From Alphaproteobacteria bacterium (GTDB lineage: Bacteria > Pseudomonadota > Alphaproteobacteria > SHVV01): DNA of 64,000 nt. Positions 27,024-58,346 of this stretch are shown here, one piece after another (the first letter of the stretch is position 1; every line of letters begins with the position of its first letter). The translations under genes and the position numbers were made by a program. The stretch lies in NCBI GenBank assembly GCA_965261735.1, contig OZ253470.1, positions 2,272,001 through 2,336,000 on the forward strand, given 5' to 3'. The notes beneath the pieces are model-generated. The model searched no databases and had not been told where the DNA came from. It saw only the letters and a program-made list of their open reading frames with translations.

Positions 27024-27124
27024 CCCCCTCCCCCTACCCCCTCCCACCAGGGGGAGGGGGATTTAGGGTGCGAGGTCCGGTTCTTGGCCCTCCCCCTTGA
27101 TGGGGGAGGGTGGGGAGGGGGTGA
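27024..27124. repeat. REP-like inverted doublet, copy A
   Basis: Tail + hairpin (27037-27060), 27-bp spacer, hairpin CCCTCCCCC-TTGAT-GGGGGAGGG (27088-27110) + tail. Confidence 0.9.
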
Positions 27125-38226: not shown

Positions 38227-38326
38227 CCCCCTCCCCCTACCCCCTCCCACGAGGGGAGGGGGAATTGTGACGCGATGTCCAGTCGTTAACCCTCCCCCTT
38301 GATGGGGGAGGGTTGGGTGGGGGTGA
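38227..38326. repeat. REP-like inverted doublet, copy B
   Basis: Same arms as copy A with a diverged 27-bp spacer (38263-38289); between divergent npdG and LLM genes. Confidence 0.9.
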
Positions 38327-45292: not shown

Positions 45293-45395
45293 TCACCCCC
45301 TCCCAACCCTCCCCCATCAACAAGGGGAGGGCCAAGAGTCGGACCTCGCGCCGTAACTCCCCCTCCCCGTGGTGGGAGGGGGTAGGGAGAGGGGG
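45293..45395. repeat. REP-like inverted doublet, copy C (reverse orientation)
   Basis: Close reverse complement of copy A including flank GTCTGCGTGTCA; 27-bp spacer 45332-45358; loop ATCAACAA as at 54777. Confidence 0.9.
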
Positions 45396-51840: not shown

Positions 51841-52623
51841 TCAGTCGCCGCTGAAGGCACGGAAGGTGCCGTGGGTGAGGTGGTGGAGGAGCGATCCCAG
51901 GAGATCGAAATCGGGGGTCGAGCGCTGCGCGGCCTGCGCCGCCCGCTCGAGCGTGACGCCGGCGGTCAGCGCCAGGAGGAAGGTGAAATCGCCGTTCGCT
52001 AGGCTCTCGTGCCGGACGTGGGCCTGGGGACGAATGACGAGGATTCGCATCGCCGCGCCGGAGGGCTCGATCGCCGGGTCCGGCACCTCACTTCCCTGAT
52101 GCGCCTGCCAAATCCCGTCGACGGCAAAGCGCGAGGCGATGAATGCCGCGGAGGGGTGGAGCTCGAACTTGAGCGCGGCGTAGCTCGCGGGCGGGACGTC
52201 GCGTAGATGCCAGGCCGTGAGGGGTTCGGCGTCGGCGGCGAAGTAGGCGACATTGTGGGCCCATTCGAGGCGTGCGAGGTCAGCGAGAAAGGGCGTGCTG
52301 CGGGCCGGCTCGAAGGCGTCGAGGAAGTCGGCAAAGCGGTCCCCGTAGGCCGAGAGCTGCGGCCTGCGCGGCGGATGAGCGCGGACGTACCGGTATGCGG
52401 CAACGCGGAAATTGGCCGCGCCGACGACTTTGGAGAGCACCGGATAGGCGGCGCCGAGGACCGAGATGAGCGAAGCGAGCGTATTGTTGCGGTAGATCGC
52501 GAGGCGCTCGCCGGCCGCGACGGAGCCGTCGGCGACCAGATCGGTCAGTAAGGCGCCATCCGCGGCCATGCCGTCCGTCTCGAAGGCGGCGCACCGAAAG
52601 GCCTCCTGCAGCTCATGCAGCAT
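51841..52623 (-). CDS. DUF2063 protein (BufC/HvfC-like MNIO partner)
   Basis: RLAIYRNN, YGDRFADFL, LADLARLEWA, LHPS. Confidence 0.85.
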   Translation of the reverse strand: MLHELQEAFRCAAFETDGMAADGALLTDLVADGSVAAGERLAIYRNNTLASLISVLGAAYPVLSKVVGAANFRVAAYRYVRAHPPRRPQLSAYGDRFADFLDAFEPARSTPFLADLARLEWAHNVAYFAADAEPLTAWHLRDVPPASYAALKFELHPSAAFIASRFAVDGIWQAHQGSEVPDPAIEPSGAAMRILVIRPQAHVRHESLANGDFTFLLALTAGVTLERAAQAAQRSTPDFDLLGSLLHHLTHGTFRAFSGD

Positions 52624-53168
52624 CACGGCCTCGCGCGTGGCTGCGCGCCGCGTCGAGGGCGCCGTCGGCCTGGCGCGCTTCGGCCAGGAGTTCGCCGAGC
52701 GGCGGGATGTTGGTGTCGCGCTCGATGAGGGTTGGTACCGGGCCGAGCCGGCGCAGCGTCGCCTCGAACAATCGCCACACTCGCGAGTCGATCGGCGATC
52801 CGTGGTCGTCGATGAGGACCTCTTCCTCGCCGACCCGCTTGACGGCATGGCCGGCCAGGTGAACCTCGCGGACGGCCTCGCCGGGGATGGCGTGGAGATA
52901 GCGCTCGGCGTCGAACCCCAGGTTCGAGGCGCTGACATGAATGTTGTTGACGTCGAGCAGGAGGGCGCAGCCGGTGCGGCGCACGACCTCGGCGAGGAAC
53001 TCGGGCTCGGGCATCGTCGAGTGGGTGAAGGCTATGTAGGATGAGGGGTTCTCGATCAGGATCTGGCGTGCGAGTCGGTCCTGGGCATTGTCGACATTAC
53101 GGCAAACGACGGCGAGCGCTTCCGCGGTATAGGGGAGCGGCAACAGGTCGTTGAGGTAGATACCATGG
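52613..53168 (-). pseudogene. DUF692 multinuclear non-heme iron oxidase (BufB-like), 5' third missing
   Basis: NDLLPLPYT, ILIENPSSY, LLLDVNN, EVHLAGH, IDDHG, TLIERD; begins at the IS junction. Confidence 0.9.
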
Positions 53169-53176
53169 CTATCCGG

Positions 53177-53205
53177 TTTACACCCACACCCACTAGGGCT
53201 AGAAT
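53177..53205 (+). promoter_or_regulatory. Sigma70-type promoter of the element B transposase
   Basis: TTTACA-N17-TAGAAT just inside the left IR, present in all four long copies. Confidence 0.65.
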
Positions 53206-53233
53206 GGGCGCAACCCGGATATAGGGGAGCGCC

Positions 53234-54253
53234 ATGGATGTTCTCGACCGCGCCGATCTCCCATTCCCGCATTCGCTACCCGAGTTCCAGCGACTTTTCC
53301 CCGATGATGCGGCCTGCGCCGCCTACCTGGAGAAAGCCCGCTGGGGAGACGGCTTTGCCTGCCCGCACTGCGGCACGGCGGGAGAGCCGTTCCACTTTGA
53401 AAACCGCCCTGGCGTCCTGCGCTGCCGCAAGTGCCGCCAGAACACCGGGCTGACGGTGGGAACAGTGATGGAGCGTAGCCACACTCCGCTGAACGTCTGG
53501 TTCTGGGCCGCTTATCTGGTCGCCAGTCAGACGCCCGGCATGTCCGCCGTGCAGTTTCAGCGGCAACTTGGTCTTTCGCGCTACGAGACGGCCTTTCAAA
53601 TTCTCCACAAGCTCCGCTCGGGCATGGTGCGGCCCAACCAAGACAGGATCGGTGGACAGCCCAAGAACCATGTTGAGGTGGACGAAACCTGGGTTGGCGG
53701 GCGAACGCGTGGGGAAGGCCGTGGTGTTCACCGCAAGGTTCCCGTCTCCTGTGCCATCGAGGTGCGTCATCGAAAGCCGGGCACCAAGCTCGACAACCGG
53801 AAAGACGGACGCTATGCCGGACGCGTTCGGCTCGCCGTCGTGCTCGACCGTAGCGCCGAGTCGCTCTGTGGGTTCGTCGAGAGCACCGTCGCGCCGCGAT
53901 CGCTGATCGTTACTGACGATTGGAGCGGCTATGCTGGCCTCGGTAAGCGCGGCTATGAGCACTTCGCTGTTGCCGAGTGTGGTGATCCAGAGGTTGCCGA
54001 GCAATACCTGCCGATCATCCATCTGGTTTTCGCCAACTTGAAGACGTGGCTGATCGGTATCCACCACGGCGTTAGCCACCAGCACCTACAAGCCTACCTC
54101 AACGAGTTCACCTTCCGCTTCAACAGGCGGTTCTACCCGTTCAACGCCTTCCGCTCATTGCTCGGCATCGCGGGCGACACCTCTGCTCCAACCTATGCCG
54201 AGCTTTACTCGGGAGAGTGGCGGCACCCTACATGTAGCGGTCATGGGCGTTAA
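53234..54253 (+). CDS. IS1595-family (ISXO2-like) transposase, intact ORF
   Basis: CPHC..CRKC, VEVDETWVGG, VTDDW, YLNEFTFRFNRR. Confidence 0.95.
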   Translation: MDVLDRADLPFPHSLPEFQRLFPDDAACAAYLEKARWGDGFACPHCGTAGEPFHFENRPGVLRCRKCRQNTGLTVGTVMERSHTPLNVWFWAAYLVASQTPGMSAVQFQRQLGLSRYETAFQILHKLRSGMVRPNQDRIGGQPKNHVEVDETWVGGRTRGEGRGVHRKVPVSCAIEVRHRKPGTKLDNRKDGRYAGRVRLAVVLDRSAESLCGFVESTVAPRSLIVTDDWSGYAGLGKRGYEHFAVAECGDPEVAEQYLPIIHLVFANLKTWLIGIHHGVSHQHLQAYLNEFTFRFNRRFYPFNAFRSLLGIAGDTSAPTYAELYSGEWRHPTCSGHGR

Positions 54254-54265
54254 CCGGATAGGCAA

Positions 54266-54298
54266 GCAAGCAATTACTAAGGTGCAAGCAATTACTAA
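54266..54298. repeat. Short direct repeat GCAAGCAATTACTAA x2 (18-bp period)
   Basis: 54266-54280 and 54284-54298. Confidence 0.85.
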
Positions 54299-54313: not shown

Positions 54314-54358
54314 ATGCCTAAGCGCACCGACATCGAATCGATTCTGATCGTCGGCGCA
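54314..54358 (+). repeat. Duplicate of the carB 5' end
   Basis: 54314-54348 is identical to 55098-55132 (35 bp); encodes [15 protein letters not shown] versus ..ILIIGA. Confidence 0.95.
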
Positions 54359-54368
54359 GTTGCCGAGT

Positions 54369-54406
54369 CCCCTCCCCCCTTGTGGGGGAGGGTTAGGGAG
54401 GGGGGG
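54369..54406. repeat. REP-like hairpin + tail, left of DUF559
   Basis: CCCTCCCCC-CTTGT-GGGGGAGGG TTAGGGAGGGGGGG. Confidence 0.9.
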
Positions 54407-54417
54407 ATGATTAACCA

Positions 54418-54750
54418 ATGGTCAGCAAAATCGCTCGGCAGCTCCGCACGAACCTCACCGAGGCCGATCAGCGGCTATGGTCACGGCTCCGGCGCCGACA
54501 ACTCGGCGGATGTTATTTTCGGCGCCAAGCCCCTATCGGAGATTACATCGTCGACTTTGCCTGCTTCGAGCGGAATCTCGTGGTCGAGGTGGACGGCGGC
54601 CAGCATACGGAGCGGGTGGCGCAAGACACAAAAAGGTCCGAGTGGCTCGAGAGCCAGGGCTACAGGGTCCTTCGCTTTTGGAACAATGACGTGCTCCAGA
54701 ACGTGGACGGGGTCGTGGACACGATTCTGGCGGCGCTTCGGGAACCATAA
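54418..54750 (+). CDS. DUF559 (Vsr-like) endonuclease-domain protein
   Basis: ARQLR..T.AD.RLW..LR, FRRQAPIGDYIVDFAC, VEVDGGQH, GYRVLRFWN. Confidence 0.92.
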   Translation: MVSKIARQLRTNLTEADQRLWSRLRRRQLGGCYFRRQAPIGDYIVDFACFERNLVVEVDGGQHTERVAQDTKRSEWLESQGYRVLRFWNNDVLQNVDGVVDTILAALREP

Positions 54751-54753
54751 GAA

Positions 54754-54793
54754 CACCCCCTCCCTAACCCTCCCCCATCAACAAGGGGGAGGG
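54754..54793. repeat. REP-like tail + hairpin, right of DUF559 (inverted)
   Basis: CACCCCCTCCCTAA CCCTCCCCC-ATCAACAA-GGGGGAGGG. Confidence 0.9.
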
Positions 54794-54819
54794 AGCAGGC
54801 TCTGACGTCGCCCGCGACT

Positions 54820-55041
54820 TTATTCCCTGCGTTCAAAGTCGAGCGGCGTCGTGGTACCTGTGCGCACTTCCGCCAAGGCTTCATCGGCGAGCCTAGCCAG
54901 AACGTCCTGAGAATCAGCGAATGCCTTGGCCCAGCGCTTTTCCGAACGCAGTTCATCGAGTATGAAGACGGCTAGCTCGCACTGCTCTTCGGGCGCAAGC
55001 TTGGCGGCTTCGTCTAGAACCTTCTTCAGCAACGTGTTCAT
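54820..55041 (-). CDS. Small antitoxin-like protein (orphan)
   Basis: [37 protein letters not shown] resembles small proteins that precede ParE/RelE-like toxins (recalled, not searched). Confidence 0.6.
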
Positions 55042-55097
55042 GTGGCGCGGTATACAGCGACACACTACCCCCCGCGAGCGATAGGGGGGCGATGGCC

Positions 55098-58346
<3,249 letters not shown>

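Follow-up and report, generated by a model that had tools for sequence, protein, structure and literature searches.

Dispersed palindromes that enclose an enzyme gene are known from the REP/REPIN systems, in which a single-copy RAYT gene is flanked by inverted, dispersed palindromes and gene-less inverted doublets of these palindromes fold into long hairpins; RAYTs are described as domesticated and vertically inherited. We analysed a 64-kb window (64,000 nucleotides (nt), positions 2,272,001 to 2,336,000 of contig OZ253470.1) of an alphaproteobacterial genome, in which a small gene of DUF559, a very common nuclease family of 'unknown function', is bounded by two inverted hairpin units. These units resemble a second described system, the bacterial repeat named BoxC, PIT or TMECO (Bergler 1992; Hoyne and Maher 2000, 2002; all as cited by Holder et al. 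2015, PMC4666352). We propose, with what we consider an even chance of being right, that the nuclease gene and its two BoxC/PIT/TMECO-type ends constitute a small selfish cassette.

The TMECO pattern has been given as CCCTCNCCC, N3-6, GGGNGAGGG, N3, GGGNGAGGG, with one mismatch allowed (PMC4666352). The accessible text of that paper counts 3610 motifs across 262 proteobacterial genomes and records that the Escherichia coli motif forms a triplex in vitro. It describes inverted motif pairs as always combining type A with type B, motif copy number as differing strongly between close relatives, the motifs as linked to genome instability, and TMECO as always intergenic. According to the same text, no transposase or integrase remnant and no mobility function had ever been found near the motif, and earlier work had detected no promoter or terminator activity for these elements. 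No partner enzyme for the repeat was found in the literature searched, and the accessible text of PMC4666352 mentions no partner gene.

A single contig of 5.03 Mb, with a GC content of 65.7%, contains the window, and the features discussed here are collected in Table 1. The 110-aa open reading frame (ORF) matches PF04480 with 144.6 bits against a cut-off of 20.6, over profile positions 5-108 of 109, and has a GC content of 60.7%. The left unit ends 13 nt before its start codon and the right unit begins 5 nt after its stop codon, and both flanks share a perfect 22-nt inverted repeat (54383-54404 and 54756-54777). The left hairpin (54370-54392, CCCTCCCCC-CTTGT-GGGGGAGGG) folds as DNA with -11.2 kcal/mol and the right end with -11.0 kcal/mol (z=-2.69); no T-run follows the right hairpin. 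Four occurrences of the hairpin pattern were seen in the window against 0.00 expected from 100 shuffles, and the tail word occurred twice against 0.09 expected, a count reached in 1 of 100 shuffles. The ORF, the Pfam match and the coordinates of hairpins and tails thus bear out the first-pass annotation of this DNA, which had described a DUF559 gene tightly enclosed by inverted hairpins with their tails facing inward. Its suggestion that the left tail serves as the ribosome-binding site is possible but weak, in that the GGAGG ends 16 nt before the ATG. No Rfam family matches the hairpins; the sole match between 53000 and 56000 lies inside an insertion sequence (IS) and is at chance level (E=0.69).

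Table 1. Features of the DUF559 cassette, its surroundings and the gene-less doublets of the window (positions in the window)
Feature	Positions	Strand	Remarks
DUF559 gene	54418-54750	+	110 aa; Pfam PF04480 E=1.2e-42; sole copy in the genome
Left end, type-A triplex-motif unit	54370-54404	+	tail toward gene
Left unit, pyrimidine and purine stems	54370-54378; 54384-54392		pyrimidine stem CCCTCCCCC, loop CTTGT, purine stem GGGGGAGGG
Left unit, second loop and third stem	from 54393; 54396-54404		second loop TTA, then mirror-image third stem GGGAGGGGG
Right end, type-A unit	54756-54793	-	tail toward gene
Right unit, tail and hairpin	54756-54767; 54768-54793		hairpin CCCTCCCCC-ATCAACAA-GGGGGAGGG, 8-nt loop ATCAACAA
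Block without counterpart in the related toxin-antitoxin locus	54358-54805	.	from alignment with G002 (L110) and a Kofleriaceae genome (L040)
carB 5' stub	54314-54357	+	first 44 nt (15 codons); 41/44 identical to 55098-55141
ParE-like toxin remnant	54806-54823	-	start codon mutated to ATA, plus 5 codons (K S R A T)
Antitoxin-like gene, intact	54820-55065	-	81 aa; divergent from carB; PF09720 E=0.0067, below the family cut-off
carB, full length (carbamoyl-phosphate synthase large subunit)	55098-58346	+	from N-terminal sequence and homologues
Two copies of the 15-nt word GCAAGCAATTACTAA	54266-54298	+	variant of the outer-arm motif of the doublets
IS1595-family insertion sequence	53169-54266	+	106 copies of full length in the genome; this one without a matching 8-bp target duplication
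Gene-less A+B doublet	27026-27120	.	tails outward; 28-nt spacer
Gene-less A+B doublet	38229-38323	.	tails outward
Gene-less A+B doublet	45296-45393	.	tails outward; A unit has the ATCAACAA loop of the right end of the cassette

The left unit fits TMECO, with a 5-nt first loop, the type-A second loop TTA and one mismatch in the third stem, and the right unit fits except for its 8-nt first loop, which lies outside N3-6. The order of pyrimidine stem, purine stem and G-rich third stem is the same, and the two repeats have in common many dispersed copies, two unit types in inverse pairing and sharp differences in copy number. Judged from this pattern, the hairpins correspond to the published BoxC/PIT/TMECO intrastrand-triplex motif and are not a new repeat; given this fit, the 'tail' would be the third strand of a purine-motif intrastrand triplex. 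The triplex formed in vitro is that of the E. coli motif. The stems of this genome are CCCTCCCCC and its mirror image CCCCCTCCC. TMECO is described as always intergenic, whereas the units found here, and in many phyla, are also the two ends of a DUF559 gene.

How unusual is this pair of units within the genome? A search for the full unit (stem, loop, stem, loop, third stem) gave 58 matches, or 57 after one overlap was dropped, in about 33 loci across the chromosome, which confirms the earlier view of a dispersed, largely gene-less repeat family. Type A has the stems CCCTCCCCC / GGGGGAGGG / GGGAGGGGG, which type B mirrors (CCCCCTCCC / GGGAGGGGG / GGGGGAGGG). Doublets of an A and a B unit, with a spacer of 25-29 nt and both tails outward, make up the majority of the loci; 17 of them are compact doublets of this kind. 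Among the 57 units, inward tails were found only in the pair that flanks the DUF559 gene, both members of which are type A, and this gene is the only one of its family in the 5.03-Mb genome, the next tblastn match having E=1.2. Two wider candidate pairs were discarded: that at 737645/739354 consists of two doublets around ordinary genes, and that at 2865613/2866838 is one doublet split by an IS copy. In the window, the gene-less doublets have outward tails, as had been noted, and the copy said to share the unusual loop with the cassette was recovered at 45296-45393; of the four gene-less doublets claimed, only three were found, even with two mismatches allowed per arm. The doublet at 27026-27120 is predicted to fold as single-stranded DNA into a three-way structure with paired tails (-32.7 kcal/mol, z=-2.56).

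The 57 units are all confined to the stretch from 0.74 to 3.94 Mb of the 5.03-Mb chromosome, and the cumulative GC skew is lowest at 3.05 Mb and highest at 0.01 Mb. Origin-proximal clustering of triplex motifs in E. coli K-12 is reported in the accessible text of PMC4666352.

We then considered whether the pairing of gene and ends extends beyond this genome. For a wider sample, one genome per species was scanned with a pattern, which yielded 585 relatives; the best 80 of these (49-63% identity) were used, with representatives in Chloroflexi, Dehalococcoidia, Desulfobacterota, Spirochaetes, Elusimicrobia, Nitrospirae, Planctomycetota, Flavobacteriaceae, Neisseria, enterobacteria and many proteobacteria. 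With a strict detector and a limit of 120 nt, an inward-facing unit was found upstream of the gene at 37 of 76 evaluable loci and downstream at 52 of 77, and 32 of 73 loci had one on each side. The background in the same loci was 39 units in 297 kb (0.131 per kb), so that the excess per side and orientation is about 55-75 fold. Of the check proposed with the first-pass annotation, the collection of DUF559 flanks across bacteria was thereby run, and over loci from many phyla these flanks are enriched for inward units far above background. It is conceivable that ordinary intergenic repeats simply landed around an unrelated small gene; such repeats favour intergenic DNA, and the locus has been rearranged by an IS. 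We regard this chance explanation as refuted for practical purposes, since the one DUF559 gene that this genome has stands within the one inward pair among its 57 units and since the enrichment recurs across the 80 loci.

Of 41 related genomes, 18 gave a PF04480 match at E<=0.001, and in 10 the match was strong. Around the 15 strongest loci outside the present genome, the strict detector placed an inward unit in the upstream 150 nt at 4 loci and in the downstream 150 nt at 8; these counts rose to 9 and 11 of 15 once the detector also accepted a long second loop, which in some lineages holds an extra GC hairpin. The stems vary between loci (CCCTCTCCC, CCTTCCCCC, CCCCTCCC, CCTCCCTCCC and others), and the two ends of one cassette resemble each other more closely than shuffled partners do (2.09 against 2.74 mismatches, a value reached by 3 of 2000 shuffles). 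Similarly, gene-less units within 2.5 kb of a cassette differ from their own cassette by 1.59 mismatches and from others by 2.21 (13 loci; reached by 30 of 2000 shuffles). Because shared descent of a cassette and its ends would match the stems in the same manner, we take this matching as evidence of linkage and not of recognition. The ends also keep a fixed geometry, with tails inward and at 5-35 nt from the stop codon, and they do so even where no other repeats are nearby and inside coding genes. Other cassettes (L062, L043) begin with an A unit and close with a B unit, and their loops are the same as those of the doublets in the present genome.

Two settings of the family deserve mention. 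In genome G019, the DUF559 domain (residues 243-348) lies in frame within a 603-aa type I specificity protein with Methylase_S at residues 4-183, and two such in-frame copies occur in that genome (L005 775-2586 and L020). In E. coli K-12, the DUF559 gene ycjD lies beside fabI (also named envM); a TMECO unit follows the gene at a distance of 165 nt, and a degenerate unit is located at its stop codon. The envM paper of 1992 is cited, in the accessible text of PMC4666352, as the first description of BoxC. At the ycjD-fabI locus (L117 11041-11407), a partial duplicate of the 3' end of ycjD is followed by the TMECO unit. In Rouxiella silvae (L095 3087-3820), a nine-unit tandem array with a period of 87-88 nt stands about 280 nt downstream of the DUF559 gene, and in another genome (L116; G001 C5:858800-859450) an array with a period of about 221 nt alternates minus and plus units and thus reads both inward and outward.

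How did the cassette come to occupy its present site? A genome of the same family (G002, locus L110) and a Kofleriaceae (Myxococcota) genome (L040) carry homologues of the 81-aa antitoxin-like gene with 63% and 57% identity, respectively, each with the gene for an 89-aa ParE-like toxin behind it (PF24732, E=3.2e-10 in L110 and 9.3e-14 in L040), in the order carB stub, toxin, antitoxin, full carB. In the window, the DUF559 cassette occupies the place of the toxin gene, of which only the first five codons are left. The block without counterpart consists of a linker of 11-12 nt, the left unit, the DUF559 gene, the right unit and a linker of 12 nt; accordingly, the carB stub ends 11-12 nt before the left hairpin and the toxin remnant lies 12 nt beyond the right one. 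The end point of the stub is the same codon in the window and in L040, and the stub is longer in G002. Because the carB stub and the toxin remnant are both visible in the alignment with these two genomes, the earlier description of both outer neighbours as gene stubs was correct. A contig of the public sequencing run X4 that is about 91% alike matches the window only from 54806 rightwards. On this comparative evidence, the cassette is a discrete unit and behaves like a block that overwrote another gene. One selfish element would here have overwritten another and disarmed a toxin-antitoxin pair.

The toxin-antitoxin islet itself sits in the 5' end of carB, with the initial 15-28 carB codons repeated beyond it (window 54314-55141, L110 1400-2160, L040 1660-2440), and its hosts are the present genome, the same-family genome and the Kofleriaceae genome. 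It looks as if this islet travels with, or targets, the start of the conserved gene carB. Besides the window, DUF559 cassettes lie next to carB or carA in L040, L042, L032 and L031, which hints at a cassette lineage tied to the conserved carA/carB locus. These four cassettes, all at the carA/carB junction, belong to unrelated bacteria (L032 1-560, L042 2380-2960, L031 2300-3100 and L040 2434-2854); that of L032 lies inside the 3' end of carA, and that of L042 abuts the start codon of carB.

The orientation of the DUF559 gene relative to carB differs between the window and L040, as it would if the cassette were an invertible segment that flips by means of its 22-nt perfect inverted repeat. The accessible text of PMC9881135 also reports 'DUF559 domain-containing protein' as enriched (odds ratio 14.3) among predicted targets of programmed inversion. 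That enrichment probably reflects the inverted ends described here, given that any gene framed by inverted repeats would produce it. Moreover, the window ORFs include no recombinase gene in or beside the cassette, and the cassette encodes no DDE, HUH or serine/tyrosine recombinase. Flipping a self-contained gene with its own start would change no product, and no strand-switch joint was seen in the contigs of four runs, although contigs drop rare forms. Inversion is thus a very improbable explanation. In contigs of runs X4, X8 and X14, the cassette, the antitoxin-like gene and carB are contiguous. One 164-nt contig of X4 joins 55097 to 54314, as would fit a circle or a tandem copy of a 784-nt unit made up of stub, cassette and antitoxin gene; the two sides share 35 nt, so the joint may be an assembly artefact, and we draw no support from it.

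The neighbourhood also bears on whether the gene could be an ordinary host gene for a repair or structure-specific nuclease, with the units acting as leader, terminator or insulator and doing unrelated jobs elsewhere. The GGAGG in the upstream tail near the start codon, the terminator-like position of the downstream unit directly after the stop codon and the single copy of the gene in this genome would all suit such a role, and the related nuclease Vsr is listed as housekeeping and not laterally transferred in the accessible text of PMC3424549. Against it stand the lack of promoter or terminator activity in the earlier work cited above, the missing T-run, the replacement of the toxin gene here and the in-frame position in hsdS elsewhere. 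The distribution is likewise patchy, only 10 of the 41 related genomes having a strong match, and the closest relatives of the protein among the best 80 of 585 (50-63% identity) occur in Chloroflexi, Dehalococcoidia, Spirochaetes and others. We consider a host function for gene and units to be improbable.

With respect to the protein, the invariant columns of our DUF559 alignment (A1) are D46, E57, D59, H63 and D70, which are candidate active-site residues of a nuclease fold like that of Vsr and the EDxHD enzymes. The alignment profile matched the PDB entries 3hrl (E=1.2e-36) and 3r3p, the 'mobile intron protein' I-Bth0305I (E=3.4e-4), an EDxHD homing endonuclease described in PMC3239194 as far as its accessible text goes. 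A fold group 'VSR, DUF559, DUF2726' is given in the accessible text of PMC3424549. By profile similarity, the DUF559 nuclease falls within the fold group that also holds Vsr and I-Bth0305I. It differs from the Vsr repair endonuclease in that the Vsr family is not among its Pfam matches at E<=0.01, in its framing by repeats, and in that no cytosine methyltransferase gene adjoins it, the neighbours being the IS, the carB stub and the antitoxin-like gene. With the EDxHD homing endonucleases it shares a homologous core with conserved acidic and histidine residues, and with free-standing homing genes a similar selfish distribution, with cassettes in conserved genes such as carA/carB and hsdS. Unlike them, it is associated with no intron, intein or NUMOD/HTH DNA-binding region, and its 110 aa comprise the nuclease domain only; as a free-standing single-domain ORF, it departs from the EDxHD homing endonucleases on this point as well. 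Structured inverted ends and dispersed gene-less copies of these ends belong to the DUF559 cassette and not to homing endonuclease genes.

The comparison with REP/RAYT is similarly divided. A gene flanked by inverted copies of the dispersed palindromic repeat of its genome is common to both systems. The enzyme here, by contrast, is a Vsr/PD-(D/E)XK-type nuclease and not an HUH Y1 transposase (PF01797), a third G-rich strand belongs to the units of the DUF559 cassette, and the cassette appears to be horizontally mobile and to insert into genes. A RAYT can also be dismissed as the mobiliser of the repeats, because PF01797 had 0 matches in this genome (the control search was positive in 6 of 14 known genomes); in this genome, abundance of the repeat thus cannot track a RAYT, an outcome that the first-pass annotation had named as refuting its proposal. 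By analogy, the cassette would function in the manner of a REPIN/RAYT pair or of a free-standing homing endonuclease gene while being a member of neither family.

Full, deleted and empty copies can be compared in the complete 4.2-Mb genome G022. There, hairpins stand to the left and right of all 3 DUF559 matches, the 5' half of one copy is missing, and several gene-less doublets of the same upstream and downstream unit types stand with tails inward about 28 nt apart. This series seems to be the pattern expected of an element and its internally deleted derivatives. It is also reminiscent of an autonomous IS with its miniature inverted-repeat transposable elements (MITEs), in which complete elements occur alongside internally deleted ones and short copies reduced to the ends; the DUF559 cassette differs in having no transposase or recombinase and no visible target-site duplication, and the doublets lack the termini of IS1595. 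In genome G005, which has 26 hairpins, only a 3' relic of DUF559 (the last ~30 codons) remains next to an inward unit. Across the 41 genomes, at least 4 hairpins were found in 6 of the 10 with a strong DUF559 match and in 6 of the 31 without (Fisher p=0.04), a comparison in which the genomes are not independent and the hairpin pattern covers one stem class only. The doublets of the present genome are copies of one ~190-nt element, with homologous spacers and about 45 nt conserved on each side that end in CTAGTACTTGSTTGC. All 11 genome matches of the arm word lie at triplex-motif loci or 1.2 kb away across an inserted IS, and the outer-arm motif of which GCAAGCAATTACTAA is a variant occurs elsewhere in the genome only beside such loci.

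Several observations weigh against the reading in which the nuclease gene and its ends form a selfish element that gave rise to the gene-less repeats. First, repeats and gene do not always go together. Genome G001 of the same family (98% complete, 20 contigs) has 105 hairpins, mostly in outward doublets, and no DUF559 at E<=1 among 62 candidates scored, and in G026 (100% complete) 9 hairpins are likewise present and DUF559 is missing; the gene is therefore not required for the repeats to persist, and perhaps not for them to spread. Conversely, G019 carries DUF559 with none, and G031 with 1, of the searched hairpins. Thus, abundance of the repeat is not strictly tied to the gene, as G001, and G005 with its relic, show. 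Between about a third and a half of the DUF559 loci in the wider sample lack a strictly defined unit on one side, and 3 of the 15 relative loci have no unit on either side. Second, the doublets of this genome combine A with B units and have outward tails, as opposed to the A/A cassette with its inward tails, and they carry conserved outer arms of their own within the ~190-nt element; they are therefore not simple gene-deleted copies of the cassette. The 17 compact doublets have a mean pairwise identity of 81% and a maximum of 92%, which means that no recent burst took place. Third, among the 57 units there is no empty inward-facing pair, and an apparent one in G001 (C11:437950/438104) resolved into one unit and the doublet that comes after it. 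Nor was a target-site duplication, an empty site or an excision product found, and, apart from the ambiguous X4 joint, the assembled contigs of the four runs contain no inverted or excised cassette. Fourth, the mirror relation of the third stem to the purine stem in this genome stems partly from the construction of the search. In a test based on the hairpin only (221 hairpins), a mirror third stem was found in 147 cases and a direct copy in 118 with up to 2 mismatches, and in 65 and 40 cases with up to 1 mismatch, which is a modest preference. Finally, the literature searched contains no biochemistry on any DUF559 protein.

Some of these observations would be explained if DUF559 were a homing-type parasite that cuts and enters repeats spread by another route, so that it regularly comes to lie between two units, and does not multiply the doublets. 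The 105 hairpins of G001 without the gene, the homology of the profile to a true homing endonuclease, the cassettes at conserved genes (carA/carB in L031, L032, L040, L042 and the window, hsdS in G019) and the doublets with arms and geometry unlike those of the cassette all point in this direction. The fixed geometry of the ends, on the other hand, is easier to reconcile with ends that the element brings along than with a split target, the deletion series of G022 points to doublets that derive from cassettes, and the present genome offers no inward-facing empty pair as a target. On balance, we think that such a parasite is unlikely, if not greatly so. As for the vehicle of transfer, plasmids and phages do not appear to be the usual one: only 34 of 72,556 plasmid records matched, mostly megaplasmids and 26 of them non-mobilizable, and there were 2 partial phage matches.

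Returning to the selfish cassette, we envisage that the nuclease would recognise the structured ends, or an unoccupied pair of units, and cut there, and that recombinational repair would then copy or move the cassette, as in homing. The short repeated units could supply both the recognition site and the homology, and the gene-less doublets would be non-autonomous or relic relatives of the cassette ends. In purely geometric terms, the order B unit, spacer, A unit with tails outward is what joined or back-to-back ends of an A-gene-B cassette would give. We hold the steps of this proposal with different degrees of confidence. The cassette is very probably a mobile unit. We lean slightly towards the view that DUF559 acts on the triplex-motif units, a view suggested by the fixed architecture; that it nicks its own hairpins is pure inference. 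The weakest of the three steps is the RAYT/REPIN-like one, in which DUF559 multiplies the gene-less doublets, and we find it rather doubtful. The RAYT/REPIN analogy drawn by the first-pass annotation is thus supported in part: the discrete cassette, the dispersed gene-less units, the lack of a RAYT in this genome and the recurrence of gene and flanks agree with it, and the loose relation of abundance to the gene, together with the geometry and age of the doublets, does not.

We tentatively suggest, while regarding it as the less probable outcome, that DUF559 is the missing partner enzyme of the BoxC/PIT/triplex repeats and that the two together make up a new class of prokaryotic mobile element. 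Such an element would rely on a Vsr-fold nuclease and on structure-forming ends, each a hairpin plus a third strand, in place of a transposase or recombinase. Its movement would depend on homing-like repair, it could lie in frame within essential or restriction genes, and it would be the source of the doublets in hundreds of genomes. A selfish gene might thereby have a novel route of movement, one that leads even into coding genes and leaves them intact. The repeat itself has been described since 1992, and the link to DUF559 would give each of the two a testable role, with a defined protein and a defined DNA substrate, and would offer a mechanism to seek behind the rearrangements associated with the repeat.

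To the left of the cassette, the IS1595-family copy lacks a matching target duplication, from which it follows that the DNA to its left was joined by a later rearrangement. The ORF at 52613-53272 loses its 5' end at this IS, and the arrangement points to recombination between IS copies at 53169. IS1595 itself was considered as the mobiliser of the doublets, with these as its MITEs, and was rejected: its ends begin with CTTGCCTATCCGG and are accompanied by 8-bp duplications, whereas the doublet arms end in CTAGTACTTGSTTGC, and the IS copies at doublets are insertions into them. The IS1595 family has expanded in this genome to 275 pieces, 106 of them full length, which total 190.5 kb and have copies that are ~99% identical. 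At 6 of the 33 triplex-motif loci an IS end is located no more than 60 nt away, against 0.72 expected, a number reached in 0 of 2000 random placements, and the IS therefore seems to prefer these repeats.

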